IMG/VR virus record: IMGVR_UViG_3300026184_000242
Coordinates: 380-64,379 of that record
From: a virus
Lineage: Duplodnaviria > Caudoviricetes
Reading direction: 5' to 3' (one strand)
DNA length: 64,000 nucleotides
Shown here piece after piece: positions 18,841 through 56,300 of the stretch. The notes beneath the pieces are model-generated. The model did no database searches, was not told the DNA's origin, and saw only the letters and a list, made by a program, of their open reading frames with translations. Every line of letters begins with the position of its first letter. Position 1 is the stretch's first letter. Position numbers and translations under genes: made by a program.

Positions 18841-19056
18841 TCACTGTTCCCTGGCGAACCCGGCCTGCATGAGTTCCACCACGCTCTGGAAGTCCTCGGT
18901 GGTCATGGAGGGCAGCTCCTCCGGATCGACCCACCACTTGGCCACCTTGGTGGACCCGGTCGGATGCACCAGGAAGCGGACCCGGCCCTGCTGGAACCAA
19001 AACCAGGATTGCCCGAAGGTTGTGCGCAGAATCTCGTTGGCTTGTTGGGCGTCCAT
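18841..19056 (-). CDS. Hypothetical protein
   Basis: ATG overlaps the terL TAA. Confidence 0.5.
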   Translation of the reverse strand: MDAQQANEILRTTFGQSWFWFQQGRVRFLVHPTGSTKVAKWWVDPEELPSMTTEDFQSVVELMQAGFAREQ

Positions 19057-21356
19057 TACGTCCATCCTTTGGCTGAGGGCACCACGATCTGGCGCGGTGC
19101 TCGATGTTTTGGCCCGAAGGTATGCGCCGAGGCCAGTACCTGGAATGCGTCCGCGCCGTGGGAGGCCCAATCATGGCGCGGCTGGTTTTTCCAGGTCCCG
19201 CGCTTGTCGTCCCACTCCTTGCGGTACGCGGCCAGCACCCCCAGCCCCTCCTGGCAATGTTCCTCGTCAAAATAGCAATACCCCAGGAAGTTGCGGGCGG
19301 CCTGGATGGCGTCCTCCTTGCGGTCGGGCCGGTTGGCGATCTCGAAGTGGATGCCAAGCTGCGCCGCTGTCTCCCAGCGGCTTTTCCCCGTCCCCATTTC
19401 CCGGACGGCGATGTCATGCGGCGCGGTATGGGTACCGTAGCGCCAGCCCCGCTCCCGCGCCTTCTGGTGGAGCATGTCGATGTAGTAGGGGATACCCTCT
19501 CCGGAGTCCTCGAAGTAGTCCACCACCCACACCTCGCGCCCCACCGTCTGCGTAAACCAGATCGCGGTGGAGTCCCCCACCCCCAGGTCCCACCACGTAT
19601 CCACGGATACCGCCTTCTCCGGCGTGATCCGCGTCACCCGCCCCTCCTGACGGGCCTCCGAAAGCTGGCGGGCGAAGTACGCGCCGTACAGGGTCGCCTG
19701 GAACGCCTCCTCCGGCGTGGACGGATGCTCCTTGAGCATATCTTTGCCCTGCTGCTTCTCCTTGAGCACGTACCAGGCCTTTTGCCGAGCATCCAGCTCG
19801 ATCCCGTACTCCTTGGCCAGCCGGTCGAAGTAATCCTGCAACCGCTGGCCGATCACCACCCGGTTCGCCTCCTCCGCCGTCAACCGGTACGAAGGCTCCT
19901 TCCACCAGGGGTAGAAGTGGAACTCCATATCCAGCCGGGTCAGCGGCCGGTCCTGCTCCTGACGCTCCTGGGCCGCCATGGCCATGTCATAGAACACGCC
20001 CTCCTGGCCCTCCGCCGTGGACTCCACCCACACCATCCCGGACTGGGGCACCGCCTCCAACGACCCGCTTTTGATCTCCTGGGCCTTGTCCGGATGCTTG
20101 GCCGCCAGCCTCCCATACTCCGATATATGCAGGAGCTGGACCGTCCCCGACCGGGCGGAAGTTGTCACGCGGATCGAAGATCCGTTCTCGAAAACCAGCT
20201 CGGCGGATTGCTCCGTCTCCGTCACCCGCGCCTGCTGGAGCGCCTCCGGCAGGTTGTCATACGGGAACTTCACCTTCTCCCGGAAGATCCGGCCGGCATC
20301 CTCCAGGGTATGGGCGATGATCGCCGCCGACACGTGGTTGTTGAACAAGCACGTATCCAGGATGAACAGGTCGATGAAGGTGGTGTTGTGGGAGACGAAC
20401 CCTTCCGCGATGTACGTGCCCACGTCCGTCTGGAGGTCAATGAGCGTCTGTTCCCCCAGCTCCTCGATGGATTCGATCCGACTCCAGCCTATCCTGCCAT
20501 TGCGCTTCCCGGGCAGCTCGCGGCCCTCCCAGAAACGGTCGCCAAGGAAGCGGCTGGGGCGGGTCTGCCCGACCAGGCGGAACAGCTCGTCCATCCGGCC
20601 CATGGCCAGCTTGGGCACCGGGTTGGCCCCGAACCGGCTGGGGCGGTCGTTGTCGTCCTCGATCCGGTAGTGGTAGCCATGGGCGTCCAGGTAATCGACC
20701 ATCCGATCCCAGACCGCGCCCTCGCGCTGCGCCACCGTCACTCCGGCCGACGTATTGCCGTTGGCGATGGAGCCTTCCCCGTCGAGCATCCCGCCGAACC
20801 AGCCGTCCTCGGCCTCGGGGGCGTCCCACGGGCGGGTGACCCAGCGCACGTAGGTCCCCGGGGTGAGCTTCTTCTTGTTGTCGGATTCGATGGTCCGCCA
20901 GTCCGTGCCGGTCCCGGCCTTCTTGGAAAGCCAGGGGTGCTTGCCGGTGCAGACCACCGACCGGCCATCGTCGAAGGTAATTCGATACGCCTTTCGGTAC
21001 ACCTCGACCACACCCTGGACGGTGGCGGTCCGCATTTTGCGGGCCCGCCCGCGCCCGCCAGGCGGGTATTCGTCCACCGACACGATCTGCTGGCCCGGTT
21101 CCAGGTCGGCGATCTGGACCCATTGCAGCTCGGCCGTCAGGACCCGGGTGCTTGGGTCCAGGCAGAACCCAATCTGCCGCGCCTTCAAGATCAGGTTCCG
21201 GTACCACATGGACCGGTACAGGTCCGCCTGGGCCCAATTCGCCCGGAACGGCACCACGTTCGAGTCCCGGTCCACCACCTTGTATAGCCGGTTAAGCCGC
21301 GCCCACTGATTGCGTAGAAGCTGCCGCGACAGCTCCCGCTCCTTCGCCTCGGCCAT
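19056..21356 (-). CDS. terL: Terminase large subunit (intein-containing)
   Basis: LKARQIGF/TT Walker A, LHISE Walker B, VESTAEG, WDLGVGDSTAIW, HDWASHGADAF nuclease motifs; ATG at 21356 with GGAGG. Confidence 0.93.
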   Translation of the reverse strand: MAEAKERELSRQLLRNQWARLNRLYKVVDRDSNVVPFRANWAQADLYRSMWYRNLILKARQIGFCLDPSTRVLTAELQWVQIADLEPGQQIVSVDEYPPGGRGRARKMRTATVQGVVEVYRKAYRITFDDGRSVVCTGKHPWLSKKAGTGTDWRTIESDNKKKLTPGTYVRWVTRPWDAPEAEDGWFGGMLDGEGSIANGNTSAGVTVAQREGAVWDRMVDYLDAHGYHYRIEDDNDRPSRFGANPVPKLAMGRMDELFRLVGQTRPSRFLGDRFWEGRELPGKRNGRIGWSRIESIEELGEQTLIDLQTDVGTYIAEGFVSHNTTFIDLFILDTCLFNNHVSAAIIAHTLEDAGRIFREKVKFPYDNLPEALQQARVTETEQSAELVFENGSSIRVTTSARSGTVQLLHISEYGRLAAKHPDKAQEIKSGSLEAVPQSGMVWVESTAEGQEGVFYDMAMAAQERQEQDRPLTRLDMEFHFYPWWKEPSYRLTAEEANRVVIGQRLQDYFDRLAKEYGIELDARQKAWYVLKEKQQGKDMLKEHPSTPEEAFQATLYGAYFARQLSEARQEGRVTRITPEKAVSVDTWWDLGVGDSTAIWFTQTVGREVWVVDYFEDSGEGIPYYIDMLHQKARERGWRYGTHTAPHDIAVREMGTGKSRWETAAQLGIHFEIANRPDRKEDAIQAARNFLGYCYFDEEHCQEGLGVLAAYRKEWDDKRGTWKNQPRHDWASHGADAFQVLASAHTFGPKHRAPRQIVVPSAKGWT
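20385..21164 (-). mobile_element. Intein (260 aa) with LAGLIDADG-like motif
   Basis: Starts CLDPSTRV, has block B CTGKHPW, GGMLDGEGS and C-terminal YIAEGFVSHN, followed by +1 Thr. Confidence 0.92.
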
Positions 21357-21404
21357 AACACCTCCACCACCAGGTGGGTCCTCCTGGACCCCCCGGCACG
21401 AGCT

Positions 21405-21658
21405 GGGGCCCCATGAGCTTGTCGTGGGGCCCCATAGAACCTTGCAACCCCCATGGGATACTGCCCCCCGAGGCCATCGCACTAGAGGACTGAATCAATG
21501 GGACTTTTAACTTTGCTACTTCTGTGCAGCGGGGCCCCTATTTTTGGGTCCTACTGGGAGTCCCGGGCTTTATGGGGCCCCTTGGGATTTTGGCGATTGT
21601 TCGGGGGGAGAACCTGACTGGAGCGGTCCACCCCCCCGGCCCCCGGGGGTGGGGCCCC
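21405..21658. repeat. Five GGGGCCCC palindromes upstream of terL
   Basis: Copies at 21405, 21426, 21531, 21574 and 21651. Confidence 0.7.
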
Positions 21659-21781
21659 TCTGAGGGGGTGCCCCCTGGGGGGTCGCCTGCGCGGGCGCGC
21701 GGACGGCCAGGACGCCCACGCGGACGCCGCTACGCAAGGTTTTCCCCTTGAGAATCAAGGAGATACCCCGCGAACCCCAAC

Positions 21782-21809
21782 ATTGCGCGTAACGTCCATT
21801 ATGTTAAAA
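21782..21809 (+). other. dif: dif-like XerC/XerD recombination site
   Basis: ATTGCGCGTAA-CGTCCA-TTATGTTAAAA versus E. coli GGTGCGCATAA-TGTATA-TTATGTTAAAT (8/11 and 10/11 arm matches, 6-bp spacer). Confidence 0.8.
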
Positions 21810-22103
21810 GCAGCCGGGAACGCGCATAACTCCGGGCCTTGTCCCTGGCGCATTGTGCGCCCTGTCACGCCCTTCATCCGCCACGCCAGGGCAGGGACAC
21901 CAGGACCGAGCCAAGCTCCACGCACAGGGCCACCTGGGCCGCGAGAACCCCATCCTCGTACGGGACTTCCCCTAGTCCAGTAGGGACTAGCACCACTACC
22001 ACCCAAGAATCAACCGGATATACGCGCCGTCTCCGACCGTGCGACAAAGTCCCTGACGGTGGCTGCCAAGCGGTACGGCGACCACCAGGGCACCCCAGCC
22101 CCT

Positions 22104-22300
22104 CGCAGCTCCCCGCATGAGCGCGATTGCGAGCGCGATTGCGAGCGATTGCGAGCGATTGCGAGCGTGAGCGAGCGCAGCTCCCCGCGTGAGTGCGTGA
22201 GCGTGAGCGAGTGCGGCTGCCCGCGTAAGCGCATGAGCGCGATTGCGAGCGCGAGCGTGAGCGCGATTGCAAGTGCGCGTGAGCGAGCCTGCGAGCGCAT
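22104..22300. repeat. Degenerate GCGAGCG(CG)ATT / GCGTGAGC tandem repeat tract
   Basis: About 200 bp of 6-12-bp units in a non-coding divergent region. Confidence 0.85.
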
Positions 22301-22577
22301 GGGGGGGGGTGCCGCCCTTCTCGGGTTGCATGACGGCCGGGCCAGTCTTTGGCGGGTGCCTTGGTCGAGACTACACCCCGGGGTTCGGGCTGCTCATTCA
22401 CAACCTGTTACGAGTCGCCCCCTATCCTCGACGAACGGCTAACAGCGGGGGAGGTGGGGGCGAGGCTGCCGCCGGGCTCCACCAGGACGGAGAGGCTGGC
22501 GAGCGCGTTTATCGTCTTGCCCCCTCGCGCAGGGGGCAGGCGCGATAAACACGCCAACCACAGTAGGAGGAAGCGCC

Positions 22578-24875: not shown

Positions 24876-25362
24876 CCCATCTTGTGCCGACCGTCTCCCC
24901 GAGCATTGGCAATCCACCAGGGACGACTTGGAGACCATCCTGTACCCGGACAAGGCCGACCCCGAGGACCTGGAGGCCCTGGGCCAGGACCCCGAGGACG
25001 CCTCCCTGGCCCGGTACGGCCTGGCCTTCGATTATGTCCCCATGGCCACCTTCTCCGACCAACAGGAGGGTTATTTCCGCTACCAAATCTCTTGGGGCGG
25101 TCCGTCGGACGAAATCCGATTTTACCTGAGCATCGCGGACCGGATGGCCCTACTCCAGGGGAAGCGCAGCTCGATAGAACCCGAAAGCATCGTGTACTGG
25201 TTCATGGATTGGTTCGACGGAGCCAGTAAAGACGTGACCTATGACGAAATCGCCCGCGCCACCTGGCAATGGTTCGCGGACGTGGGGGGCCCCCGCACCG
25301 CCATGCAGGAGGCCGACGTGGGCGAAGGCGAACTCCTGGCCGAAGCCGACGAGGAGGAATAA
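24868..25362 (+). CDS. Acidic early phage protein
   Basis: 164 aa, D/E-rich, YQISWGGPSDEIRF motif. Confidence 0.65.
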   Translation: MTDPSCADRLPEHWQSTRDDLETILYPDKADPEDLEALGQDPEDASLARYGLAFDYVPMATFSDQQEGYFRYQISWGGPSDEIRFYLSIADRMALLQGKRSSIEPESIVYWFMDWFDGASKDVTYDEIARATWQWFADVGGPRTAMQEADVGEGELLAEADEEE

Positions 25363-25460
25363 CCGCCAGGGCGGGCCTATCCGGTCCGCCCCTCTTGTCA
25401 ACCCTGTTACCCCTTGCTAACGTGATAATCACGCCAACCATTCAAGCTCAGGAGCTACCA

Positions 25461-26441
25461 ATGAGCCACGAAATCGCAAGCCGCGCCGACGGACGCGCCG
25501 CCATGGCCTTTACCGGGGATACCCCCTGGCACGGGCTGGGCCACAATCTCACCCCGGGCGCCCCCCTGGAGGACTGGCAGCGGGAGGCGGGCCTGGACTA
25601 TTCCGTCGCCTCCGCCCCTGTCGAGTACCACACCGAGGATGGGGAGCACCGCCGCGCCGCCGGCCAGAAGGTCCTGTATCGTTCCGACAACGCCCAATCC
25701 CTGGCCGTGGTGTCCGACCGGTATCAGGTCCTTCAACCCGGGGACGTGATGGCCTTTTACCGGGACCTGACCGAGGCGCAGGGCTACACGATGGAAACTG
25801 CGGGAGTGCTGAAAGGTGGCCGCCGGGTCTGGGCCCTGGCCCGCGCCCCGCAGGAGGACTTCGCCGTCGGGGGTGATCTCATGCAGGGATATGTCCTGCT
25901 GGCGACCAGCTATGATGGAACCATGGCAACCGTCGCCAGCCACACCACGGTTCGCGTGGTTTGCCACAACACCCTGTCCATGGCCGTCGGGGCCGGGGGC
26001 GAGCGCGGGGATATTAAGATCCCGCACAACACCTCGTTCGACGCCGACGCCGTCAAGGCCCGCCTCGGGCTGCGCCCGGATCTGGTTGCGCGGTTCCAGG
26101 AGAACGCCGAGGCCATGGCCCGGAAGCAGGTTTCCAAGGACGCTGCCGTCCGGTTCTTCCTGAATGTCTACTATCCGGACCAGGAAACCTTGGAGGTCAC
26201 CCGCGCCGTCAATCGCCGCCTGGAGGAGCTGGTGACCCTGTGGAACACCGCGCCCGGCCAGGAGACGGACGCTGCCCGGGGCACCGCCTGGGGCCTGCTC
26301 AACGCGGTCACCTACCACACCGACCACGCAAGGAACACCCGGACCCAGGAGAACCGCCTAGAGGCCGCATGGTTCGGGACCGGGGCAACCACCAAGGCCA
26401 GGGCTGCCTTCGAGGCTCGCAAGCTCGCGGAGGTCGCCTAA
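25461..26441 (+). CDS. DUF932/DUF945 (TIGR03299-like) phage/plasmid protein
   Basis: TPWHGLG, ETAGVLKGGRRVWALA, TSYDG, VRVVCHNTL, GTAWGLLNAVT. Confidence 0.88.
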   Translation: MSHEIASRADGRAAMAFTGDTPWHGLGHNLTPGAPLEDWQREAGLDYSVASAPVEYHTEDGEHRRAAGQKVLYRSDNAQSLAVVSDRYQVLQPGDVMAFYRDLTEAQGYTMETAGVLKGGRRVWALARAPQEDFAVGGDLMQGYVLLATSYDGTMATVASHTTVRVVCHNTLSMAVGAGGERGDIKIPHNTSFDADAVKARLGLRPDLVARFQENAEAMARKQVSKDAAVRFFLNVYYPDQETLEVTRAVNRRLEELVTLWNTAPGQETDAARGTAWGLLNAVTYHTDHARNTRTQENRLEAAWFGTGATTKARAAFEARKLAEVA

Positions 26442-33459: not shown

Positions 33460-33588
33460 AAAAAAGGCCGGACCCGTGGGGGTCCGGCCCGGCTTGAAGG
33501 ACGCCAATCTTCCAAGCCCGGATGGGGAGAGGACGCACAGTCCCCATCCTGGAGATTTCATGGTGCAGGGAGGGCGAGGGTCGGTCAA
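33460..33588 (-). promoter_or_regulatory. Putative late promoter plus leader terminator (pR'/tR'-like)
   Basis: TTGACC-17bp-CACCAT (33588-33560), then a GGCCGGACC/GGTCCGGCC hairpin with T6 (33489-33460). Confidence 0.5.
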
Positions 33589-35702: not shown

Positions 35703-36782
35703 TCAATCGCCTGTCAGCCCTTTTTTTTTCCGCAGGAGGTCGTTCCAGTCCATTCCGACCTCCGGCGGGATATGGACATTCTCGGCCTCCACGGAGTACC
35801 CCTTGGCCCGGAGCCGGAAGGCGAGGGTATAGGCCGCCTTCTGGCCGGCGCAGGACGGATCGTTGTCCCCGAAGATGGAAACCGCCTTGATCCCGGCCGG
35901 AGGCACCCAGGCCTCCATGTTGTTGGCGCTGTAGAGGGACCAGCACGGGATCCCGTACAACTCCCAGACCGACAGCGCCGTCTCGATCCCCTCCGCCACC
36001 GCGAGGTGATCCAGGCCCCGGACATCGAACAGCCGGATGGCCCCACCCTTGAGGGGGCGGTACGGGGGAAGGACCTTCTTGCGGGACTGGTTGGCGGGGA
36101 AGGATGCATCCCCGGGGAGGTAGGTGCGGTGGAGGCTGGCCCCCCGGCCATCGGCGTCATGGAAAGGCACCACCAGGGCCGGATACTTGGCCAGGAGGTT
36201 CATATCCTTGTCGTAGAGGGGGAGGTCGGGGTGCTCGCGGAGCACTTCGGGAAGCTCGGATTCGATCCCCCGGCCGCGCAGGTAGGCCTCCACGCTCGGC
36301 CGGGACTGGGAAAGCTCCCCCCAGATCCGTTCGATGCGCTTGCGGTTCTCCTCCTTGGACGGACCTTGGGGGGTGGGGTCGGTAGCGGGGGCCTGACCGG
36401 TCATTTCCAGGACCTCCCGCAGGGCTTCCCGGAAGGTGAGCCCCAGGAGCTGCTGGACCAGCCGGATCCCGTCCCCCGGGCCCTCGACGTTGCAGTACCA
36501 GTCCCCGTTGCCCCGCTTGTTATCGAATCGGAAGCGGTCCTTTCCGCCGCAGGACGGACAGGGATGGTGGTGGCCGTCCAGGTACTGGGACGGGACGCCG
36601 ACGGCGGCCAGGATCCAGGACCAGCGCCCCCGGGCCGCCTCCAGGACGTCCTCCCGGTCAAGCCTGGGCCCGCTCCTTCTCCCGCTGCTTGGCGAGCTTG
36701 ATGTTGCGGTATTTGATCCACCGTGCGACCTCGTCGTTGGGGCGGAGGGGCTGCCCCTTCCACCATGTCCGTTCTGGATCAT
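35703..36782 (-). CDS. Primase (P4-alpha-type Zn finger plus Toprim); start uncertain
   Basis: HHPCPSCGGKDRFRFD...GDG; AVAEGIETAL; IFGDND; DWND. Confidence 0.85.
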   Translation of the reverse strand: MIQNGHGGRGSPSAPTTRSHGGSNTATSSSPSSGRRSGPRLDREDVLEAARGRWSWILAAVGVPSQYLDGHHHPCPSCGGKDRFRFDNKRGNGDWYCNVEGPGDGIRLVQQLLGLTFREALREVLEMTGQAPATDPTPQGPSKEENRKRIERIWGELSQSRPSVEAYLRGRGIESELPEVLREHPDLPLYDKDMNLLAKYPALVVPFHDADGRGASLHRTYLPGDASFPANQSRKKVLPPYRPLKGGAIRLFDVRGLDHLAVAEGIETALSVWELYGIPCWSLYSANNMEAWVPPAGIKAVSIFGDNDPSCAGQKAAYTLAFRLRAKGYSVEAENVHIPPEVGMDWNDLLRKKKGLTGD

Positions 36783-38178
36783 GGCCGAATTTGTCCCGGA
36801 AGGCGTAGTACGCCCACCCGCGTTTGTGGCCTTTCAGCTCGGCATGTCCCCATAGCATCCGGAACCATAGGTGCTTGGTTTTCTCGGTCGGCTCCTGGGC
36901 CTCGGAGGGCTGGGCCTGGCCGGAATCGCGGCGGATCTCGCCTAGCTGGCCGTCCACGTAGGCCACACCCTTGCCGATCTCGTCGGGGATGGTACCGCAG
37001 TTGGGACAATCCGGGCGGCCGGAGTAGACATGGAGGCAGTTTTCGCAGGTAAGGAGGGTAGCGCCCTTCTCTTTGCGCTTCTCCTGGACGGGGTTTTTGT
37101 TGTCCTGCCCCGGTTCCAGGGTCCAATCCTCGAACTCGTCAATGAACCCATGCTCGAAAACGGCCCCGGCATGGTCCAGGACAAGGGCGTCCTCCTTGCC
37201 ATCCGCCGGGCGCAAAACGCGCCCAACCATTTGCAGGTAGAGGATAAGAGACTTCGTCGGCCGCGCCAATACACAACAGGAAGCGCGGGGAAAATCCCAT
37301 CCCTCGGTCAACACCTGACAGTTTACGACAACCTGCAAATGTCCTGCTTCCAAATCTTCGAGAATCCGGTCGCGCTCCTCCTTGTCCGTCTTGCCGTGGA
37401 CCACCTCGGCGGCCACCCCGGACGCGCGGAACTCCTCGGCCAGATGGACGGCATGCCGGACCCCGGAGGCGAACACCACGGTGGGCCGGTCCGGCGCGTA
37501 CCGCTCCCAGTGGGTGACCACGTCCCCCACCAGAGTGGGTTGGTCCATGGCGGATTCCAGCTCCCCGCTGGCGTAGTCCCCGTTGCGGATGGTGACCTCG
37601 TCCAGGTCGGGCTGGCTGGGGGCGAAGTACCGGGGCGGGACCAGCCACCCGGCGTCCAACATTTCCCGCATTGTCGGACCCTGGACCAGGGCCTCGAACA
37701 CGTTGCCCAGGCCGCGCCCTTGGATATTGGCGGGCGTGGCGGTAAGGCCGATGAAAACGGCGTCCGGCCACTTCTCCATCAGCTCGCGGTAGGACTTGGC
37801 GGTGGCGTGGTGGGCTTCGTCAATGAAAACCAGGCCGGCGGCCGGCGGGGTGATGCTGCCGTCCTTCACGGCCCGGCGGTATAGGGTCTGGATGGAGCAG
37901 ACCTGGACATGGCGGGCCAGCGGTTGGGCCCCGGCCATAATGATCCCGTGGGGGACGTCGTAGGCCTCCAGCTTATCGCTGGCCTGGTTCACCAGCTCCC
38001 GGCGGTGGGCCAGGAACGCGGTGTAGGTGGACTTCTCCACGGCCCTTCGGATGATGTCGGCGGCCAGGACCGTTTTCCCGGATCCCATCCAGGCCTGGAC
38101 CAGGATCGTGCGGTTCCCCTGACGGATCAGGTCCCGGATCTCCTCGCGGAGGCGCTCCTGGTAGTCGCGCAGTTCCAT
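36658..38178 (-). CDS. Superfamily 2 DNA helicase with C-terminal Zn finger
   Basis: LRDYQ, GSGKT, DEAHH, GLTATP, LTEGWD, QMVGRVLR, CxxC...CPNC. Confidence 0.92.
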   Translation of the reverse strand: MELRDYQERLREEIRDLIRQGNRTILVQAWMGSGKTVLAADIIRRAVEKSTYTAFLAHRRELVNQASDKLEAYDVPHGIIMAGAQPLARHVQVCSIQTLYRRAVKDGSITPPAAGLVFIDEAHHATAKSYRELMEKWPDAVFIGLTATPANIQGRGLGNVFEALVQGPTMREMLDAGWLVPPRYFAPSQPDLDEVTIRNGDYASGELESAMDQPTLVGDVVTHWERYAPDRPTVVFASGVRHAVHLAEEFRASGVAAEVVHGKTDKEERDRILEDLEAGHLQVVVNCQVLTEGWDFPRASCCVLARPTKSLILYLQMVGRVLRPADGKEDALVLDHAGAVFEHGFIDEFEDWTLEPGQDNKNPVQEKRKEKGATLLTCENCLHVYSGRPDCPNCGTIPDEIGKGVAYVDGQLGEIRRDSGQAQPSEAQEPTEKTKHLWFRMLWGHAELKGHKRGWAYYAFRDKFGHDPERTWWKGQPLRPNDEVARWIKYRNIKLAKQREKERAQA

Positions 38179-38260
38179 TGCGGCGTCCTGTCTTGAAATG
38201 GGCGTGATAACGAGGGTATCCCCACCAGGAGGGTGGGGAAAGGGGCAAGAGGGATGGGGG

Positions 38261-38790
38261 TTGACCCTAATGGGCTATAGGGTAATAGTGAATGGACGCA
38301 AAAAAACCCGGCGGTCGGTCATGGGGCCTTACCCGCCGGGTTCAGCCTGGGTGGAACCAGGGACTCAACATATTGTACCCCTGAGTCCCTCCCAGATACA
38401 AGAAGTTCCCACCAGGCTGTTTCGATGTGACCCCATCCGGAATCGCCCAAGCCGCAGACCTCCGGGGGATGCAACCCCTGCAAGGGAGGTAAGAGGCGAA
38501 CCCACCCTGGCCGTCCGCTTGGACCAGCGGCCCGTACTCGGGAAGGTAGCCCGAGCGAGGGATAAACGGTTGAAGGTAGGGCTCCGTTGCGTCGGAGCCA
38601 GGTGCTGGGGGCCTGATGATCCGTGCTGGAGCTGTTCACCGACCAGCGTGGAATGCACGGTAAAGGCTCAGGCAGCGGAGTGGCGGGCGAGACACCGCGC
38701 CGATATAGCGACCAGGGCGGAACAGCTACCGAAACACCACAAAGGCCTAGAGGCTGGGGGAGGCAGCACCGCCTACCCCGGTCAAAGATT
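38261..38790 (+). ncRNA. Candidate large structured RNA with overlapping antisense unit
   Basis: Promoter-like TTGACC at 38261 and at least 8 GC-rich stems including a long-range pair (38505-38513 with 38709-38717). An opposing promoter and terminator lie at 38401-38300. No convincing ORF. Confidence 0.45.
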
Positions 38791-38810
38791 CTTATTGCCT
38801 GGAGGTTGGC

Positions 38811-39017
38811 ATGAGCGACTGCAAGTGCGGCGGGGTGGTCGAGGTAAAAACCCATGACGTTTCCGGGAAAACCAAGAAAAGGGAATGGCTCCAAAACCCA
38901 TCCCGCCAGGTCCCCGAAGGCTCCCTTTCTGTTTACCAGCGCCGTTGCCGGTCCTGCGGCAGGCAGGAAGTCCGGATTTTTGACGCCGAGGGCTATCAGG
39001 TCGAGCACCGGGGGTAG
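38811..39017 (+). CDS. Small Zn-ribbon protein
   Basis: GGAGG RBS; CKC...CRSC. Confidence 0.55.
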   Translation: MSDCKCGGVVEVKTHDVSGKTKKREWLQNPSRQVPEGSLSVYQRRCRSCGRQEVRIFDAEGYQVEHRG

Positions 39018-39067
39018 GTCGCCGGATCAAAGGGCCCCCGGTATGTCTTAGCCCAGAATCAGGATAT

Positions 39068-39106
39068 GATAACCCTGTTGACATCGGGAATCCCGCTAAG
39101 TAGGAT
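39068..39106 (+). promoter_or_regulatory. sigma70-like promoter of the recombination operon
   Basis: GATAACCCTG-TTGACA-17bp-TAGGAT. Confidence 0.7.
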
Positions 39107-39155
39107 TCCATACATGGGTTCGGAAAGAACCTAACTGCGGCGAGGAGAAGGCGAA

Positions 39156-39971
39156 ATGGGCGATGGGAATTGTTCTGACCCCCGGATGATTAGAGACGTC
39201 TACGTCCGGGAGCTGGGGGATGGAAAGGATTGGTACGGGGAAGTCCGGGCCGAGTTCGTTCCTTCCCGCAGCCTGGGGTGGATCGGGGTTACGGGTTTTC
39301 ACCAGGAGGCCAGCGAAGATCCTGGATTCGACTTTCCTGTAGCCGTGGTAGGGGTAACCCGGGAGGAGCTGATCGAGTCCGCTATCCTGGTGCGGGATGC
39401 CCTGCGCCAGTGGGGCACCCAGCTCACCGCCGGCCACCGGCCCACCGAGGCCAGGCAGGGTTTGCGCCGGGCCAAGCGGGCCATTCTGGGGGAGGCGGAG
39501 CCGGAGCCAGCCAAGACTCCGAGTAAACAACCCGCCCCCACCGAGAAACCTGCCAACCAACAAGGTTGCACCCTCAACCCAGACGGCAAAACCTACTCCG
39601 TTCCCCCCCACCTTCTCCGCAGCCCGCCCAGCTCCAATCCCCGCGCCCAGAAGTGGACCCAGGTCCCCCGGGCTGACCAATTCGTTAGCGACCCCTCTTG
39701 GCGTGGCCGGAAAGTGGAGGAGCTGGAGCTTGGGCCCTACCCGCGCGGCCGGCTTTTGGCCGCAGGGATCCGGAGGCTGGGGCAACTCCAGGACTTCACG
39801 GAGGCCGACCTGGCCCAGATCCAAGGCATTGGCACCGATACCGCCCGCGCCATCCTGACCACCATCAACCAGTACGTGGCCTGGGAAGGAAGCGGAAAGA
39901 AGGTCACACGGGCCCGCGACCGCAACCCAAACCCGGCCAAGACCAAGGCCAAGCCCAAGGAGCTTTTCTGA
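39156..39971 (+). CDS. Protein with C-terminal RNA polymerase alpha-CTD-like (HhH) domain
   Basis: VEELELGPYPRGRLLAAGIRRLGQLQDFTEADLAQIQGIG resembles the RpoA CTD pattern. Confidence 0.6.
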   Translation: MGDGNCSDPRMIRDVYVRELGDGKDWYGEVRAEFVPSRSLGWIGVTGFHQEASEDPGFDFPVAVVGVTREELIESAILVRDALRQWGTQLTAGHRPTEARQGLRRAKRAILGEAEPEPAKTPSKQPAPTEKPANQQGCTLNPDGKTYSVPPHLLRSPPSSNPRAQKWTQVPRADQFVSDPSWRGRKVEELELGPYPRGRLLAAGIRRLGQLQDFTEADLAQIQGIGTDTARAILTTINQYVAWEGSGKKVTRARDRNPNPAKTKAKPKELF

Positions 39972-46240: not shown

Positions 46241-46278
46241 GATAACCCCATTGACATGACAGGGAGGGCCAGTAGAAT
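46241..46278 (+). promoter_or_regulatory. sigma70-like promoter of the Y-RNA/Ro60 unit
   Basis: GATAACCCCA-TTGACA-16bp-TAGAAT. Confidence 0.75.
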
Positions 46279-46374
46279 AGGAATTGTGCCGCAGACGTCG
46301 GACGGCCGGGGGATCTTCCCGCTTCGCACCCCGGCCCCGTCCGGCCACACAAGGATAGCTTGCTGTCCTTGTGT

Positions 46375-46449
46375 GGCTGGATGGCGCAGAGGACAGGTAC
46401 TTCGTCCAGTGATAACGTCAACCCCCGTTCGCAACAGCTTCCTCCAGCC
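46375..46449 (+). ncRNA. Y-RNA-like unit 1
   Basis: Closing stem GGCTGGA/TCCAGCC; shared TGGCGCAG, TACTTCG and CAGCTTCC motifs. Confidence 0.7.
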
Positions 46450-46460
46450 TCTACTCAGTT

Positions 46461-46541
46461 TGCCCGTGGCGCAGGGCTCGGTTACTTCGCCAGTGACTTG
46501 AAATCACTACCAAAACACCGAGCCCATCAGCTTCCCGGGCA
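46461..46541 (+). ncRNA. Y-RNA-like unit 2 with anticodon-stem-loop mimic
   Basis: TGCCCG/CGGGCA and GGGCTCGGT/ACCGAGCCC stems; same three motifs; internal AGTGA-CTTGAAA-TCACT. Confidence 0.75.
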
Positions 46542-46547
46542 TCTTTT

Positions 46548-46676
46548 CGGGTGGCGCAGAGGGCGGATACTTCGCCATAGGAGCGAGTGGTCGTCGGTTC
46601 GAGTCCGACCGGGTTTCAAAGGAACCCGTAGCTCAGTGGGTAGAGCACTTATCTCCGTCCTCCCCAGCTTCCCCCG
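46548..46676 (+). ncRNA. yrlA: YrlA-like Y RNA with circularly permuted tRNA domain
   Basis: Same motifs. The T arm GTCGG-TTCGAGT-CCGAC precedes a closed acceptor-like stem and the D arm GCTC-AGTGGGTA-GAGC. Confidence 0.85.
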
Positions 46677-46679
46677 TCC

Positions 46680-46704
46680 GGGGCCCTTCGGGGCCCCACT
46701 TTTT
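46680..46704 (+). terminator. Intrinsic terminator after the RNA array
   Basis: GGGGCCC-TTCG-GGGCCCC followed by ACTTTTT. Confidence 0.7.
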
Positions 46705-46718
46705 CAAGGAGCCCCGCC

Positions 46719-48086
46719 ATGTCCCGCCTCAACACCCCGTCCCAGGCTGACCGCCCCCGCACCCACGAGGGAGCCCCTGCCCGCCGGCTGACCGCCATCC
46801 AGGCGCTGCGCCGGACGGTACTGTCCGCCCTCCTGTGGGAGGACACCTTCTACGAGTTCGGTAGCGAAGGAGCCCAGCGGATCCGGGCCCAGGTTGCCCG
46901 TCTCGCGGAGACGGACCCGGACCTGGAGACGGTGGCCGCTATGGCCGTCGAGGCGCGGGAGGAGCAGCACCTGCGTCATGTCCCCCTGCTGCTGGTGCGG
47001 GAGCTGGCTCGGTTCAGTTCCCCGCGCACCGCGCAGACCCTGGCCCGGGTGATCCGGCGCCCGGACGAATTGGGGGAGTTCGTGCGCATGTATTGGGAGG
47101 GGAGCACGGAGGGCCCGGCCCTTTCCAACCAGGTCAAGAAGGGGCTGGCGGAGGCGTTCCGCAAGTTCGACCGCTACCAGCTCGCCAAGTGGTCTACGGG
47201 AGACACGCGCAAGGGAGGGGTGCAGGGGCGGACGGTTTCGCTCCTGGACGTTATGCGGCTGGTCCACCCCAAGCCCAAGGACGCGGCCCAGGCGAAGCTG
47301 TGGGCCGATCTCAAGGCTGCCCCCCTGGCCCCTCCGGACACCTGGGAGACTCGGCTTTCCGGGGGCGAGTCGGCCAAGTCCGCCTTCCTGGACCTTCTGG
47401 AGCGGAACAAGCTGGGGTACATGGCCCTGCTCCGGAACCTACGGAAGATGGATATGGAGGGGGTGGACTCCGATCTGGTCCGCCAGCGGCTCCTGGAAGG
47501 GGCCCAGAAAGCCCAGGCCCTTCCCTTCCGGTTCATCGCCGCAGCCCGCGCCGCCCCGCGCCTGGAGCCCACCCTGGATCAGGCCATGATCGAGTCCATG
47601 GGGGCCATGGACCGTCTCCCGGGCAAGACCCTGGTCCTGGTGGACCACTCCGGATCCATGTCTGCCCCGGTTTCCCGGCGGTCGGATATGAGGCGCTGGG
47701 ACGCCGCCGCCGGCCTCGCCGTTCTGCTGGCCGGGGTGGCGCAGGAGTGCGAAGTTTGGTCGTTCGGAACGGACATTCAGGCGGTTCCGCCCCGCCAGGG
47801 CATGGCCCTGATCGACGCCATACACAAGGCCCGGGTGGGAATGAGCACCAACCTGGGGAAGGCCGTCAAGAATGCGCTGGTCGAGGATTGGGACCGCCTG
47901 GTGGTGATTACCGACGAGCAGTCCGGCGACCGGGTTCCGGAGCCCTCCACCGCCAAGCCGGCCTACATGATTAACGTGGCCCCATATGAGCACGGGGTCG
48001 GCTATGGAAGCTGGGTGCATATCGACGGATTCAGCGAAGCCACCCTCAAGTTCATCCAGGCCCTGGAGAGCGAGGAGCTGTCCTGA
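46719..48086 (+). CDS. Ro60/Rsr-like TROVE + vWA RNA-binding protein
   Basis: THEGAPA, LLWEDTFYE, RHVPLLL, FDRYQLAKW, HPKP, PDTWET, YMALLRNLR, LPFRF, VDHSGSM, VITDEQ, IDGFSE. Confidence 0.92.
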   Translation: MSRLNTPSQADRPRTHEGAPARRLTAIQALRRTVLSALLWEDTFYEFGSEGAQRIRAQVARLAETDPDLETVAAMAVEAREEQHLRHVPLLLVRELARFSSPRTAQTLARVIRRPDELGEFVRMYWEGSTEGPALSNQVKKGLAEAFRKFDRYQLAKWSTGDTRKGGVQGRTVSLLDVMRLVHPKPKDAAQAKLWADLKAAPLAPPDTWETRLSGGESAKSAFLDLLERNKLGYMALLRNLRKMDMEGVDSDLVRQRLLEGAQKAQALPFRFIAAARAAPRLEPTLDQAMIESMGAMDRLPGKTLVLVDHSGSMSAPVSRRSDMRRWDAAAGLAVLLAGVAQECEVWSFGTDIQAVPPRQGMALIDAIHKARVGMSTNLGKAVKNALVEDWDRLVVITDEQSGDRVPEPSTAKPAYMINVAPYEHGVGYGSWVHIDGFSEATLKFIQALESEELS

Positions 48087-50334: not shown

Positions 50335-53300
50335 CTACTCCAGCCCCTGGCTTTCCAGGGTCTTTATGGACCGCCGGAAGATTTCATTCTTCCGGCGGTT
50401 TAGTTCTTCGATCTTGCGCCGCTTCTCCTCCGGATCCAGGTAGGGGGTTCGGTAAAGCTCCTCCACCTGATTGTTGATCTCCCGGATGGTCCGGTAGTTC
50501 TTGCGCAGGAAGTCGTGCTCCCGAAGCTGCTTCTCGTGGCTGGTGAGCAGGCTGCGCTTCTGCTGGGGGAGGTGGCGGTTGCGGTAGCTCCGCGCCGTGT
50601 TCATGGTCTTGTCGGCGTCCACCATCAGCTCGTAGAACCGCTTCTCGTAGTACGTGTTGTGCTCCGGGCCGGTGCCCCGGTAGAGCGCCCCCAGCACCGG
50701 CCAGTCCTGTAGCTCGGTGCTCGGCGGGTGCGGGTAGTCCAGCATGTTGCGGGCGAACACGTCCGTGGCCCCCAGGGCGTACATGCCGATGGGGCCCAGG
50801 TAGCCCCGGAAAAGGTGCTCCAGGCGGTCCGGAGACATACCGGTGGCCTGGCCCACCGCCCGCATGGTGTCGCTGGTCCAGGGGCCATACTGCGCCTGCG
50901 GGAGCAGCTCCTGCTCCCCTTCCGGGACGATGGGCCGGTTCGTGAAGAAGCTCCGGTTGGCGATTTCCTCCGCCAGCGGGGCCAGCACGTGCGGCACCGG
51001 GGCCGGGATCCCGTCTACCTCCACGTTCCCGAAGTTCAGGGTGTTCTCCAGGTCGAATTGGAGCGCCCGCATGGACTTGTCCAGCGCCTCCCGGTTGTGG
51101 AAGTACAACAGCTCCGCCAGCCGCTCCGGCACGTTGCCGAACAGAATCCCGATCTCGAAGGGCTTGGGGATCACCCAGTGCTCGCCCCCGGCGAAGAAGT
51201 GCCAGTATTGCTCCCGCTGCCAGGTTTCCAGGGCGTTGAACCGGTCGTCGTCCTTGTTCTGCATCCAGAGGGCCACCGACGCCAAGGCCAGACCCATGCC
51301 CTTGAAGGTGAAGGCCACGGGGTGCTGGAGCCCGTACCGCGCCAGCCGGTCGATGCCCTGGAGGCGGGCGTTCAGGAAGGGCACGGTGCTGGCCATGAAG
51401 CGCACCACCGGGTTATCCCCGCGCTTTGAGAAATCCATCATGTCCTTGGCCTCGAAGGCCGCCTCCAGGTTGGACTTCCCGGCCCGCTTGGCCGCCTTGT
51501 AGTAGGCCAGGCGGTTGGCGTTCTCCGAGCGCACCGACAGGGATTCCCATTTGTCGTTGGCCCGCGCCATGAGCTTGACCGGGCTCCCCCACGCGCGGCG
51601 CTTGCGGTCGTGGGCCCTGAGCAGGCGGCGGGTCACCTTGGTCATGGCCGAGGGGTCCTGAGCGTGGAGATAGCCGCCGTAGAAGCCACCACCAGCCGCC
51701 CACATTGCGATCATGTCCGGGTCCTCCTCGTGGGCGTGGAACAGCTCCCGGACCCCGGAGAGGATCGGGGTGACGTTATCCCGCGACAGGACATAGGCCT
51801 GGCCCGTATCCCGGAGGAAGTTGCGAAGCATGAACTCCGGATTCCGCGTCACCGACCAGCGCAGGAGCTGGGTGGGGGCCCGGAAGGCCCGCGCCCATGG
51901 CCCCAGGGGCTTCTCCTGGAGGGAGCCCATGGCCCGCGCCAGGAGCTGGTTGTGGACCTCCCAGTATTCCGCCTGGCCGCCCCGGTACACCCGCATGATC
52001 CGGGCGTCGTCCGGCTGCGCCCAGTGGTACATCATCCGCATGCCCCGCCAGGCTTCATCGGGCAGGCTGTCCACGTCCACCCCGTCCTCGGCCAGGAGCC
52101 GCTTGACCTGCTCCATGGGCACCGGGGCCTTGCGGAAGTTGGGCCGGGCCCGGGTCATAAGGTCGGAATGACCACCCAGGTTCTCCACGGCCATGGCCGC
52201 CGCATGGTTGCGCATGGAGGCGGTCAGGAGGTGGGCGGTGTTCATCAGCATGTTTTCGATCACGCTATTGATGTTGCTCCGCCCCCCACCCAGGCGCTTG
52301 ATGGGGTTGGTCTGGTTGGCCAGGCTGCCCGCCGCCTTGGGGCCGCGAATGTCGTCCGCCTCGTGGACGCGGTAGAAGGGTACATAGTCCATATGCTCCC
52401 AATACTTCCGGGACTCCGGGTCGATCAGGCCGGAGGATTCCGCGAAGTTAAGCATCTGGTGGTTGAAGTCCGTCCACTCCTGCGCGGCCTGCTCGAACTC
52501 GGGGTGGAGACGCCCCAGGTCAATGGCGGCCTCGATCTCCTCGGGGGTGAACAGGCGCTCCCGCCCCTCCATCCATAGCCGCGCCGCCCGGCGCCCGGCC
52601 ATATACCGTTCCCATAGATCCCACTCGTGCTGGATAGGGTCGAGAATATCCAGTAGACCCTTGCGGTTCGGCACCAGGGTGGCGGCACCGTCCTTGAACA
52701 TGAGGGGCCCATGCAGGAGCACGACGCGCATTTGGGCATCGGGAGTGGTGCTCATTCGGGCGGCGATATAGGCGCTGCTTTGCGGGGTCAGCGTGGTCTG
52801 GTCCCGCTGCTCCACAATATCCTCGGCGTATTTCAGCCCGTAGAACTTGTCCAGTCCGCCCTGCTGGAGCCGTTTGGCGAGCCCCTTGCGGCTGCGGAAA
52901 AACTCCTGGATCGGGCTACGGTGGGGGCGGCCGATCTTAGCCCCCATGGATTGAAGGTGCGGGTTGTCGCGGGGGTCGGATCCCTCGTTCGTGGCCAGGA
53001 GCGGATCCGCGCTGGCCTGGCTCAGGGCCTGCCGGACGGCGGCCTGGCCCTGGGGGGAAAGGCGCTGGTACCGCGCGCGGAGGGGGCCGTACTGCTGGAA
53101 CCGGCGCTGGTTGGCCCGGTTCTCCGCCTCCAGCACCGCCACCTCGTCCTGGTTTCCCTGCTTGCGGGCCTTGGCCAGCCGGCGCTGGACCGTGCGGGCC
53201 CGGTGCTGGTCGCGGAAGGCCTGGTCCGGGCGGATACCCGCCTGGACGGCGTCCTCCACCAGGGAGCCCGCTTCCCCGGCCTCGTGCGGATTGCGGTGGC

Positions 53301-56300
53301 GCAGGGCGGCCCAAGACTCCTTGGAGCCTAGCTGCCAGTTGGCGGTCAGGCTTTCCCAGTGATCCCCCAGGGCACCGTCCAGCCAGCTACCCCGCAGGTA
53401 GCGGTAGGACCGGCCGATCAGGTTCCGCAGGTCCCGGTCGGTGAGCTGGAGCTTGAACCCTAGGCTGCGCAAGGCGGCCTTGATCGGCCCCAGGACCCGG
53501 TCCAGGAGGGTTGGCTGGGCCCCCTCCTCGGTCATTTCCGCTAAGGCCTCCTCGGCGGCCCTGCGGCGCTCTGAGACGACATTCAGGTCCAGGCCATGGG
53601 AACGCGCCGCCATCTGGACCTGCGCCGGGAACTGGTCGGCCACCTGATCCATATAGGAGTCGAGCTGCCCACCCAGGAGGGACCGGATCCCGTAGTGCCC
53701 CACCGTCTCATGCAGGAGCACCTGCTGGGCCCGCTCCACGGAGGGCAGGTTGTCGGCCACCAGATAGACCTGGCCCGTAACAGGGTCGAATACGCCCTGG
53801 GTGCCCTTCTCGAAGCCGCGCTGACGAATCGGATGGGACAGCCGGAACGGGAGGTCGGAAACCGATTGCACCACCTGGAACCCGGGCCCGTGTCGCCAGC
53901 CCTCGGCAACCGGTTGCAGGCCCTGCTCGATGGTGTGGCGCGGCAGCCCTCCCTGTTCCTGCTGCTGGCTCGGCCAGTCCTGGAACAGTGGCTGGCCCTG
54001 CATGGCGGACTCGCGCATGGCCTCCGTCACCGGAAGCCGCCATACCTGCATCGTGTGGAAGGGGTCCTCGGTCAGCGTCCCGTTGAAGTGGGCGGCCAGC
54101 CCCGGGGTGCCCTCCGCCTCCATGGCCTCCCGGAAGGTGGCTCCGGCCTCCATTTTCTCCAGCACCAGCCGCAGGGTATCAAGGTAGGGCCTGTCCAGGG
54201 ATACCAGGCTCGTTCCATCCGGAAGGGGAATATCCCCCCGTTCCATGGCGGCGAGCTGCCCTTCATCCAGCGTATCGCCTTCGTAGCGCAGCTCCCCATT
54301 ATCGTTGGGGATCTGGACGGTCGATGTCTCCGGCTTGGCCCCCCACTTCTTCGTGTACTTCTTGACGGCCTCGGGCAGGATCTTGTCGTAGTAGGCCTTC
54401 ATGCCCTCGCCGCCCATTTCCAGGTCCAGGCCGGACAGGCTGGTGAACTGCATGCCCTGCCAGGGGCCGCTGGTGGGGCTGTGCGGCTCCTGCTCCAGGA
54501 GCCGGTTGGCCAGCTCCTGCCCCACGAAGCCCTGGACCTCCTTGACGCCCATTTGCCGGCGGAGAATCTCTCTCCCGTTGTGGTCGAAGGCGACGAGCTT
54601 GGGGTTCTCGAATGCCTTGGTCGTACCCTTGGGGACCTTCTCCCGTAGCTCCAGCCGGGTAACGTGTCGGGCCATGTTGTACCGGTGGGTCTGGGTGGAA
54701 CCGGTGGTCCAGCCGATGGAGCTATACCCGTTCTCCGTGGCCCAACGGATCATCCGTTTCAGGACGAGGTTGGTCCAGCCGTTGCCCTCGAAGGGGGCTT
54801 GCGGAACCACCTTCCGGGAAAACTCCTGCTGCTCCATCATGTCCTCGCGGTAGGGGGCCGGATCCACGTCCTCCCCCAGCCCAAAGAACTCCCGAACCTG
54901 GGCGTCAGTGGGCTCCTTGCCCTGGTAGCCGTGCTTGCGGCCCGCCTGGTGCCAGTCGGATTGGAGTTCCTCCAGGAACAGCATGGGGTTACCGTCCGCG
55001 TCCTCCCGATCCGTGAACCGCACGTGGGCCAGAATGTTGGGCTCGCCCCGGAAGTGGGGGGCCCAGTAGGTCTCGCCCTTGCCTGCCGGAAGGGTCAGGG
55101 TCAGCTCGCGGTAGTTCTCCCCACCAGGGGATTTGAACTGGTCGTAGCTGGTGGGGGTCTGGCGGGGCTCGATCCGGGTGGCCACCATGGCCTTGGCCGC
55201 CTCCAGGTCCTGGAAGTGGCTAACACCTCCTCCGAAACCGGGGACGCGGTACTCCCCGGTTTCGGGGTCCTGGTCGATAACCATGACGACTCGCTTGAAG
55301 TTGATCGGGTTCTGGCCCTTGGCCATGTAGACCTTCCGGCCCCCGTCCTCCCCTTCCTGCCATTTCAGGCCCCCGGCCGGGGCCCCGCGCAGGTTCTCCT
55401 GCACCGTGACGTGGTTGTCGCGCAGGAAGTCCAGGACCTCCTGACGGCTGATCTTCTTGGGCCCCTCGAAGATCGTTCCCTGGAACTCGTCGCGGGCCGT
55501 GTCGGCCCGGTCGTCCAGGTACTCCAGGAGTCCGGACCAGTCCAGCTCCTCCTGCTTGAAGATCCGCCCCTTTCGCGCCATCGTCTGGACGATCTGTTTG
55601 ATCTGCTCCGGGGTGCCGGAATTGGGCAGCCGGTTCGCCAGCTCGTGCTCCATCTGGTAGTAGAAGCCCGGGGCCACATGGGCCAGGTAGGGTTCGGAAT
55701 CCTGGGGAATGCCGCCCTGGAGCGCGAGGGAGCTGAGGTCCCCCCGGGGGCCGGTGAAGGTGTCCAGGAACTCCAACTGGTTGTTGTTGGCGAAGCGGCT
55801 CAGGTTCGTCACCGAGGGCCCGGAGGGGCTGCGCAGGCGGGCGATGAAGGCGGACGCACCCGTCTGGTGGAGGGCCTGCAACAGCCGGGAGGCCCCCGTG
55901 CCCTGCTGGCGGGTACGGAGCGGGGCCATTTCCTCGGCGGTCATGGGCAGGAAGCCCACCACGTTGTGGCGGTGGTCCAGGAGAAGCAGGCCTTCTTCGT
56001 CCCCGACCTTGTTGGCCACGTACTGGCGGGCGTCCTGGGCGCTCTCCAGGGTATCCCTCTGGTCCTGGGGCTCGACCCGGCGGAACCTGCGCTCCTCCAC
56101 CGGGATCTGGTGGACCCGCCGCATGCCCGGGATGCGGTTCGCCTTCTGCCCCCGGTCCTCCGCCTTGGGGCCCTGGTCCTCGGTGAACTCACCGCCCGGG
56201 GCCACCACCACCATGCCTCGGAAATGGATGCCCGTTGCGGCCATGTTGCGGTTGAACCGGTCGGTGACGCGCTGGTCCAGGGCGGACTGCTGGGGGTTGC

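Follow-up and report, generated by a model that had tools for sequence, protein, structure and literature searches.

The window analysed here is a stretch of 64,000 nucleotides covering positions 380 to 64,379 of IMG/VR record IMGVR_UViG_3300026184_000242, and it is nearly all of that record, a linear tailed-phage genome of 64,379 bases with about 65% GC and an estimated completeness of about 84%. Our subject is a 632-bp gap between two divergent genes (38179-38810), which runs from the start of a helicase gene at 38178 on the minus strand to the start of a small open reading frame (ORF) at 38811 on the plus strand. It is the divergence point of two DNA-metabolism operons, helicase-primase leftward and Zn-ribbon/RecE/RecT/SSB rightward. 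We found that the gap is non-coding and that at least four hairpins in it look real: two 5' stem-loops, by their folding, and two further hairpins, H3 and H4, by natural variation. We tentatively read the gap as a structured rightward leader or non-coding RNA (ncRNA) with a short terminated counter-transcript, which would make it a regulatory control region of the two operons; we consider this plausible, if somewhat short of probable. Should the hairpins belong to an RNA, it would be an unclassified structured phage leader or ncRNA, for which neither an Rfam family nor a relative turned up in the collections searched. From its place at the switch point of replication and recombination genes, it could reveal how their timing is set in a soil phage that has not been cultured.

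A gap without coding signal

Codon-usage log-odds fall below zero in every one of the six frames of the gap (-0.53 to -0.68 bits per codon, compared with +0.08 to +0.77 for 24 genes of the window), and its period-3 power is 0.39, as against 0.73±0.42 in shuffled sequences and 11-14 in pieces of genes. The long plus-strand ORF that it contains has a flat codon-position GC of 0.65/0.59/0.60, while neighbouring genes show about 0.67/0.45/0.84. This 219-codon ORF (38198-38857) is unusually long, a run of 210 stop-free codons being reached by 11 of 1000 shuffles. Among 5.8 billion proteins, its sole match was itself, and neither its product nor that of a 229-aa minus-strand ORF had a tblastn match in 50,697 phage records at E <=1. 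Moreover, a sister strain carries four 1-nt deletions inside 27 nt of ORF 38198-38857, with a net break of the frame. Periodicity, codon usage, absent homologues and the frame-breaking deletions rule out a protein-coding gene, whether at 38198-38857 or at 38319-39008. A first-pass annotation of this DNA had taken the region for RNA rather than gene, and had named codon-like conservation of an ORF as what would speak against this; the coding tests were all negative, and the premise stands. A decayed upstream gene was also rejected, since 595 ORF pieces taken from upstream of related helicases all scored <=24 bits in tblastn against the gap.

A terminator and its adjoining hairpins

The folding signal of the gap is concentrated in 38300-38419, where a sliding-window fold gives z-scores of -6.4 and -5.6; for 38296-38425 the values are -5.0 on the plus strand and -4.6 on the minus strand. 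Part of this signal comes with a hairpin followed by seven T residues on the minus strand (38342 to 38298), which the first-pass annotation had reported and which is indeed present. It consists of a 10-bp GC-rich stem (38305-14/38333-42) followed by U7, with a dG of -19.6 and a pair probability of 0.95-0.97, and by its sequence it qualifies as a canonical intrinsic terminator for minus-strand transcripts. Five others of this class lie between genes of the phage, at 33465(-), 29921(-), 14002(-), 46700(+) and 30940(+). The automatic terminator scan, with a loop limit of 8 nt, had passed over the one in the gap. A leftward RNA ending there would stop about 120 nt before the helicase ATG. Directly ahead of the terminator hairpin in minus-strand order (38419 to 38343) is a 77-nt imperfect hairpin (38343-38419), built of an outer stem 38343-57/38405-19 and an inner stem 38359-67/38382-90 with an asymmetric internal loop of 13-14 nt. 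On the plus strand it has a pair probability of 0.97-0.98. On the minus strand the value is 0.64-0.65, and the hairpin gains two extra G-U pairs there (-62.6 vs -59.4 kcal/mol on plus).

The eight stems of the first-pass annotation were tested by coordinate and all are complementary, seven of them perfectly and the long-range pair 38505-13/38709-17 at 8 of 9 positions (Watson-Crick). For the final G-rich hairpin that it had placed at 38754-81, a 4-bp reading of the stretch has an ensemble pair probability of 0.00. Three hairpins on the plus strand need to be named. H3 (38458-38490) pairs ACCTCC with GGAGGT (38458-63/38485-90) around an inner G/C stem and has a pair probability of 0.32-0.58; H4 (38537-38555) consists of CTCGGG, a 7-nt loop and CCCGAG (stem 38537-42/38550-55; 0.98-1.00); H5 (38580-38599) pairs GGCTCCG with CGGAGCC (38580-86/38593-99; 0.93-0.98). 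H4 and H5 fall within a multibranch domain (38505-38717), closed by the long-range pair (pair probability 0.79 on plus, 0.99 on minus), on which the minimum free energy and centroid structures agree; without excess stability, this domain is a prediction only. For the stems 38611-16/38668-73 and 38621-26/38655-60, the plus strand gives pair probabilities of 0.00-0.04 and the minus strand gives 0.39. Between 38290 and 38800 (511 nt) the folding energy corresponds to z-scores of -2.16 (+) and -2.29 (-). Helices of at least 9 bp are the sole class above chance in this interval, with two found against 0.2 in shuffles, 4 of 300 of which reach two. As for repeats, the gap has no family of more than two copies and no tandem array, and its k-mer maxima are at or below those of shuffles.

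Natural variation in a sister strain

The phage DNA is contained in a single public DNA run from soil, probably its source, and contigs of this one run were aligned to 37849-38534 at 80% likeness. The main contigs have a depth of 52-59. Pieces of a related strain, with a depth of about 5-6, agree with them at about 80-85% of positions across the helicase gene and the gap; within the gene, the differences of this sister strain are mostly spaced by 3 nt, as a coding region would lead one to expect. In the gap, the comparison with it covers 38285-38328 and 38431-38564. The main contigs break at 38001-29, 38299-328 and 38431-60, presumably at 30-mers common to both strains; 38299-38328, which holds the terminator U-run and one arm of its stem, is such a contig anchor and is identical in the sister strain.

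One variant piece spans 38431-38534 and differs by 11 substitutions and four 1-nt deletions (38461, 38469, 38479 and 38487). Two of the deleted bases, T at 38461 and A at 38487, are paired partners in the H3 stem, so that a whole pair is removed; the other two lie in the loop (38469) and opposite a base of a G-U wobble, as its partner (38479). The 30-letter loose end of this piece was compared with 38535-38564 by eye and without gaps. Twenty of the 30 letters are the same, and 6 of the 10 differences are in the H4 stem, three of whose six pairs are changed on both sides (T-A to C-G once, G-C to A-T twice). All six pairs still form, and 6 of the 7 loop bases are kept, an outcome with P of about 2.3e-4 in a random-substitution simulation. 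Both H3 and H4 appear to be preserved by compensatory change. This calls for caution about method, as folding z-scores and stem counts read "chance" for stems that natural variation later supported.

These changes bear on the idea that, beyond the terminator and the hairpin next to it, the gap has no function, being filler or the remains of a gene, and owes its other stems to chance. Such an idea fits the stem counts and folding energy of 38420-38800, which equal those of shuffles, as well as the lack of repeats and of any homologue in 68 related-helicase loci, and the 210-codon stop-free frame could be a coding relic. However, filler does not predict compensatory changes in H4 and H3, and there is no remnant similarity to the ORFs that precede the helicases of relatives (<=24 bits) or to any protein. 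Besides, some 400 bp of filler is rarely kept in phage genomes. We consider this explanation improbable.

Candidate transcripts and a proposed control scheme

A sigma-70-like promoter, TTGACC-17-AATAGT, lies on the plus strand at 38261-38289, with a predicted start at about 38294-38297. It had been picked out in the first-pass annotation and is present as one of eight sigma-70-like matches in 2 x 64 kb (both strands). Properly oriented intergenic plus-strand sites of this kind number three (38261, 39078 and 46251), all with TTGAC, and a promoter scan of 37900-39300 returned two sites, against 0.3±0.6 in shuffles. The similar promoter of the same phage at 46251-78 also precedes a long non-coding stretch, one with a YrlA-like small-RNA array, which we count in favour of a rightward leader. 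On the opposite strand, the sole promoter candidate of the gap is a weak site, TTGTAT-18-TACAAT (38401 to 38372; 8/12 consensus), within the loop of the 77-nt hairpin. A leftward RNA beginning there would be about 68-69 nt long, with a 23-nt tail carrying a 5-bp hairpin, followed by the terminator hairpin, whose U-run ends where the plus-promoter transcript would begin. Scanning the gap revealed no sigma-70-like promoter between the terminator and the helicase, nor any on the minus strand near 38800. A G-quadruplex motif at 38231-53 (+), which has four or five runs of G3-5, shortly precedes the plus promoter and lies in the template of the helicase 5' untranslated region; it was set aside, being one of 14 in the window and unenriched.

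That both strands are transcribed, where the transcripts begin, which strand carries the hairpins and what they do, we infer from sequence. Rightward transcription from 38261-89 (start at about 38296) would produce a leader of about 515 nt ahead of the gene at 38811. This leader would open with two very stable stem-loops (38305-42 and 38343-419) and carry at least two more selected hairpins (38458-90 and 38537-55). Leftward transcription, whether arising in the gap or entering it, would be stopped at the terminator 38342-38298, and the resulting short leftward RNA would be complementary to the first 70 nt or so of the leader, or more. The helicase-primase operon would then be reached only by read-through of the terminator; such read-through probably feeds it, because no sigma-70-like promoter lies in between. 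We propose that the level or timing of both operons could be set by leader structure, by antisense pairing and by interference between the convergent promoters.

The strand on which the hairpins act is a separate matter. The plus strand of the gap is rich in purines (AT skew +0.12 to +0.21, GC skew +0.03 to +0.12), a bias also seen in the sense strand of the rightward genes. This bias and the plus promoter incline us to see the plus strand as the one in which the hairpins have their sense. The minus strand may still be the sense strand, given the extra G-U pairs of the 77-nt hairpin and the predicted pair probabilities. Taken to its end, the minus-strand possibility would mean a leftward structured leader, in which a transcript from about 38800 folds over some 500 nt and the terminator 38342-38298 gates the helicase-primase genes in a riboswitch-, T-box- or antitermination-like manner. 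The terminator does lie 120 nt upstream of the helicase ATG and on the same strand, helicase transcripts probably cross it for want of a sigma-70-like promoter in between, the minus strand gives the long-range and H4/H5 pairings a probability no lower than the plus strand does, and the 77-nt hairpin gains its two G-U pairs there. Yet there is no minus-strand promoter-like site near 38800 from which such a transcript would start, and no riboswitch or leader family was matched. Furthermore, the RNA would be pyrimidine-rich, which is unusual for structured RNAs. A leftward leader seems to us unlikely.

Several observations weigh against the rightward leader with its counter-transcript and explain why we hold to it only tentatively. 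First, its structure is not exceptional in bulk. Helices of at least 6 bp (loops of 3-60 nt) number seven in 38290-38800, against 7.3±2.6 in dinucleotide shuffles, 191 of 300 of which reach seven, and the 381 nt of 38420-38800 fold with z-scores of -0.49 on the plus strand (30 of 100 shuffles as good) and -0.81 on the minus strand (19 of 100). The structured RNA of about 500 nt described in the first-pass annotation must be cut back accordingly: the stretch as a whole is not unusually structured and only 38300-38419 gives a signal. Second, the comparison set for the gap is one fragmentary variant, so that many-sequence covariation statistics are out of reach; this variant is known from a summary table that displays 40 of its 53 differences, and the evidence for H3 and H4 was read by eye from the four deletions in it and a loose end of 30 letters. 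Third, the plus-promoter call is weakened because the -35 side of this promoter, together with the helicase start and its 5' untranslated region, falls in a 144-nt replacement that makes 38140-38284 of the sister strain unalignable, and because the -10/start stretch 38285-38298 has four changes in 14 nt. Fourth, the opposing promoter is there as a sequence but its quality is at chance level, the relaxed class to which it belongs having 57 matches in 128 kb, or 0.28 expected per 631 nt per strand. Hence, of the earlier claim of a short antisense RNA over the leader 5' end, the terminator and the head-to-tail geometry were reproduced but the promoter is not convincing, and a discrete short leftward RNA is a candidate only, in its 5' end as in its existence. 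Finally, a search for trans targets of the 5' tail of this RNA among 60 gene starts gave a best energy of -30.1 kcal/mol, against -28.6±2.4 kcal/mol for shuffled tails.

A last objection is that the operator of a dimeric protein may likewise acquire compensatory changes in its inverted repeat, since dyad symmetry there also forces changes to be mirrored. The gap could hold DNA-level elements with no functional RNA, either operators for dimeric regulators or single-stranded DNA hairpins at a protein-dependent origin or primase loading site. The supported stems are all perfect Watson-Crick inverted repeats, which DNA contains just as an RNA would, a 6-bp inverted repeat lies within the plus-promoter spacer (38264-83), and the gap separates divergent early operons and adjoins primase and helicase genes. 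But the nature of the changes, with one pair lost from both arms of H3 and three of six pairs altered in H4 with its loop kept, suits a stem better than a site read by a protein; nor did we find a recurrent motif or iteron in the gap, or recognise a repressor-like gene nearby. We rate DNA-level elements as rather unlikely, and retain the rightward leader as our working proposal.

Relatives and genomic setting

Searches for relatives of the gap were negative. No Rfam family reached its gathering score across the window, and within the gap only spurious weak matches appeared at E <=10, the best being mir-328 with 26.5 bits for a threshold of 70. A search for tRNA and tmRNA genes found none. By blastn, the gap matched none of 50,697 phage records, and none of 72,556 plasmids at E <=0.01. 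At 68 loci encoding relatives of the helicase (20 viral, 37 metagenome and 11 genome contigs; protein identity <=48%), it gave matches only at E >=1 with blastn and at E >=9.2 with nhmmer. Of 14 such loci inspected, 13 had at least 400 nt upstream of the helicase, and in all 13 the ORF listing placed a reading frame of 60 aa or more no further than about 130 nt from where the helicase begins. The long gap thus seems particular to the lineage of this phage. Viral contigs were also scanned with four patterns, exact or IUPAC, none of which had a match; near-identical records may lie outside the scanned set.

The first leftward gene encodes an SF2 helicase (36658-38178, minus strand; ResIII 2.2e-27, Helicase_C 2.2e-16, phrog_16 1.2e-109) and is followed by a zinc-ribbon/Toprim primase gene (35703-36782, minus strand; Toprim_3, DUF7146, Zn_Ribbon_Prim, phrog_510). 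The first rightward gene (38811-39017, plus strand) has a GGAGG ribosome-binding site at 38800-04 and encodes a 68-aa Cys-rich protein with a CxC...CxxC pattern; its period-3 power is 2.68, a value reached by 3 of 500 shuffles, and its third-position GC (GC3) is 0.74. This protein belongs to no Pfam or PHROG family, and lowering the Pfam threshold to E <=1 gave no function for it, nor for eight other small proteins. Beyond it are genes for a 271-aa protein with a weak helix-hairpin-helix match, for which viral contigs yielded no relative, and for a RecE-like exonuclease, RecT and SSB. A hairpin followed by T5 (dG -17.1) is found at 38949-38981 (+), inside the 3' end of the 68-aa ORF and 36 nt ahead of its stop codon, and a promoter-like TTGACA-17-TAGGAT lies downstream of it at 39078-39106. 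The first rightward transcript may terminate early, at the 38949-38981 hairpin.

Elsewhere in the window, a phage Ro60 module occupies 46251-48086 (+). It opens with a promoter-like TTGACA-16-TAGAAT (46251-78), followed by the motif GGCGCAGnGnnnnGnWACTTCG, which occurs three times at a spacing of 85 nt (46383, 46468 and 46553). This Y-RNA motif is absent from the 38179-38810 gap, all three copies being at 46.4-46.6 kb. The third copy begins an Rfam YrlA-like match at 46560-46664 (44.9 bits, E 9e-7, the gathering score being 69) that includes T and D arms resembling those of tRNA. The module ends with a hairpin and T5 terminator at about 46700 and a TROVE/Ro60-like gene at 46719-48086 (PF05731 4.5e-12; phrog_850). 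To judge from its sequence, 46251-48086 appears to be a phage locus in which Y-RNA-like genes are repeated in tandem. Further along, 50335-60795 (-) holds a single ORF of 3486 codons with a strong coding signal (GC3 0.89), then two ORFs of 496 aa. An 808-aa protein is encoded at 19056-21482 (-); it matches phrog_2472 and phrog_26724, with weak matches to the terminase large subunit and to Intein_splicing (22.1 bits for a cut-off of 35.8), and may be a terminase with an intein. Finally, 25269-26441 (+) encodes a DUF932 protein (PF06067, 3.1e-60), a family that is frequent on plasmids and conjugative elements.

Proposed replication from the gap

The first-pass annotation had proposed that the gap may be an RNA-controlled origin, or a copy-control system, that dispenses with an initiator protein, by analogy with ColE1. 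In an RNA-primed scheme of this kind, a rightward RNA of about 500 nt would prime replication through a hybrid and the short leftward RNA would inhibit it, as in ColE1 or at the origins of cluster A mycobacteriophages. Part of what we observed agrees with it. The leftward terminator ends at the rightward start site, the gap adjoins helicase-primase genes, the proteins scanned include no DNA polymerase or clear initiator, and the cumulative GC skew dips slightly to its minimum at around 34-38 kb. At about 630 bp and 62% GC, the non-coding gap also resembles the proven origins, which have about 600 bp and 60-64% GC (PMC7157519). Its whole-length folding z-scores of -2.8 and -3.5 fall inside the range of -2.2 to -5.5 that we calculated for four proven mycobacteriophage RNA-based origins of about 600 bp (30 shuffles each in both cases). 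This calibration shows that the whole-region folding z does not discriminate RNA-based origins.

The remaining evidence points the other way. Rfam had been named beforehand as a check, and RNAI was unmatched at E <=10 in 38100-39200; no other Rfam family and no plasmid or phage record by blastn was matched either. Ten RNA-based mycobacteriophage origins were made into an nhmmer profile and run against the window; the profile missed the gap, and its best match (E 9.2) was at 22157. For comparison, the RedRock origin was matched by 133 phage records. The antisense overlap would involve one hairpin, not three, and the antisense promoter is weak. The phage encodes its own primase, and the relatives of its helicase that were inspected do without such a gap. 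Within the 64,379-base record, which is 84% complete, no match to ParB_N, AAA_31 (ParA) or Phage_integrase (tyrosine integrase) was found, hence no sign of a plasmid prophage. Nor does the gap resemble an iteron-type origin, defined by at least three direct repeats and an AT-rich unwinding element, as it has no iterons. The only iteron-like array of the window is elsewhere, at 22104-22310.

Nothing that we found ties the gap to replication, and the ColE1-like replicon is unsupported and very unlikely. We would give equally little credence to an RNA-controlled lytic replicon unrelated in sequence to the RNA origins of ColE1 or mycobacteriophages, in a phage of which 84% holds no lysogeny or partition genes, and an RNA-primed, initiator-free origin in general is highly improbable. 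A replicon would matter more than a leader if it were true, but RNA-based initiator-free origins in tailed phages have already been published (PMC7157519).

The array at 22104-22310 is an element in its own right, made of about 200 bp of degenerate tandem GCGATTGCGAGC/GTGAGC units, and it is the sole non-coding tandem array of the window. The 1.2-kb stretch that contains it (21483-22576) shows no coding periodicity, lies upstream of the gene for the 808-aa terminase-like protein and also holds several GGGGCCCC palindromes. The array is the more classical candidate for an origin or a packaging (pac) site, and could also be centromere-like.

Comparison with known systems

ColE1 needs no Rep gene: its RNA II is processed by RNase H and extended by Pol I. 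The overlap of RNA I and RNA II forms three stem-loops, which serve kissing-loop pairing. The phage gap is similar in having a candidate long non-coding RNA and, over its 5' end, a candidate short terminated counter-transcript that stops beside the start site. It differs by the absence of sequence or Rfam similarity, by having one stem-loop instead of three, and by its unconvincing antisense promoter. Its setting differs as well, being a 64-kb tailed-phage contig that has a primase and a helicase of its own. The mechanism by which the RNA II primer is controlled by antisense RNA I is outlined in the introduction of a study of mycobacteriophages (PMC7157519). The non-RepA RNA-based origins of cluster A mycobacteriophages, which are transcribed and need no protein product, lie directly upstream of parABS in temperate phages with extrachromosomal prophages (Wetzel et al. 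2020; PMC7157519). They share with our gap a non-coding stretch of about 600 bp in a high-GC tailed phage, with similar GC and folding z-scores. However, they show no similarity to it by profile, and they adjoin parABS (PMC7157519), while here the neighbours are helicase-primase and RecE/RecT genes.

A second group of systems resembles the leftward arm of the proposed scheme, in which a candidate promoter would be followed by about 68 nt, a strong terminator and then the helicase-primase operon. In the lambda PR'-tR' region, with its 6S RNA and Q, and with the put RNAs of HK022, terminated leader transcripts upstream of an operon are read through by antitermination. The two adjacent stem-loops behind the promoter of the other strand may also recall this arrangement. 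Here, however, we recognised neither an element nor a protein resembling Q, N or put, and the promoter is weak by consensus. Further analogies are offered by sar of P22, pR/pL of phage 186 and the CI RNA of P4.

The lambda replication region contains a convergent promoter pair, pR and pO (PMC3985674), with a short leftward terminated RNA that opposes strong rightward early transcription near replication genes, as proposed for our gap. The lambda origin is an array of iterons in gene O with an initiator protein, whereas in our phage the short RNA would overlap the start of a non-coding leader, and we identified no origin. The oop RNA of lambda is itself a short terminated RNA beside ori-lambda, antisense to the 3' end of a coding sequence. 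We regard the lambda pR/pO-oop arrangement as the nearest working analogue of the gap (PMC3985674).

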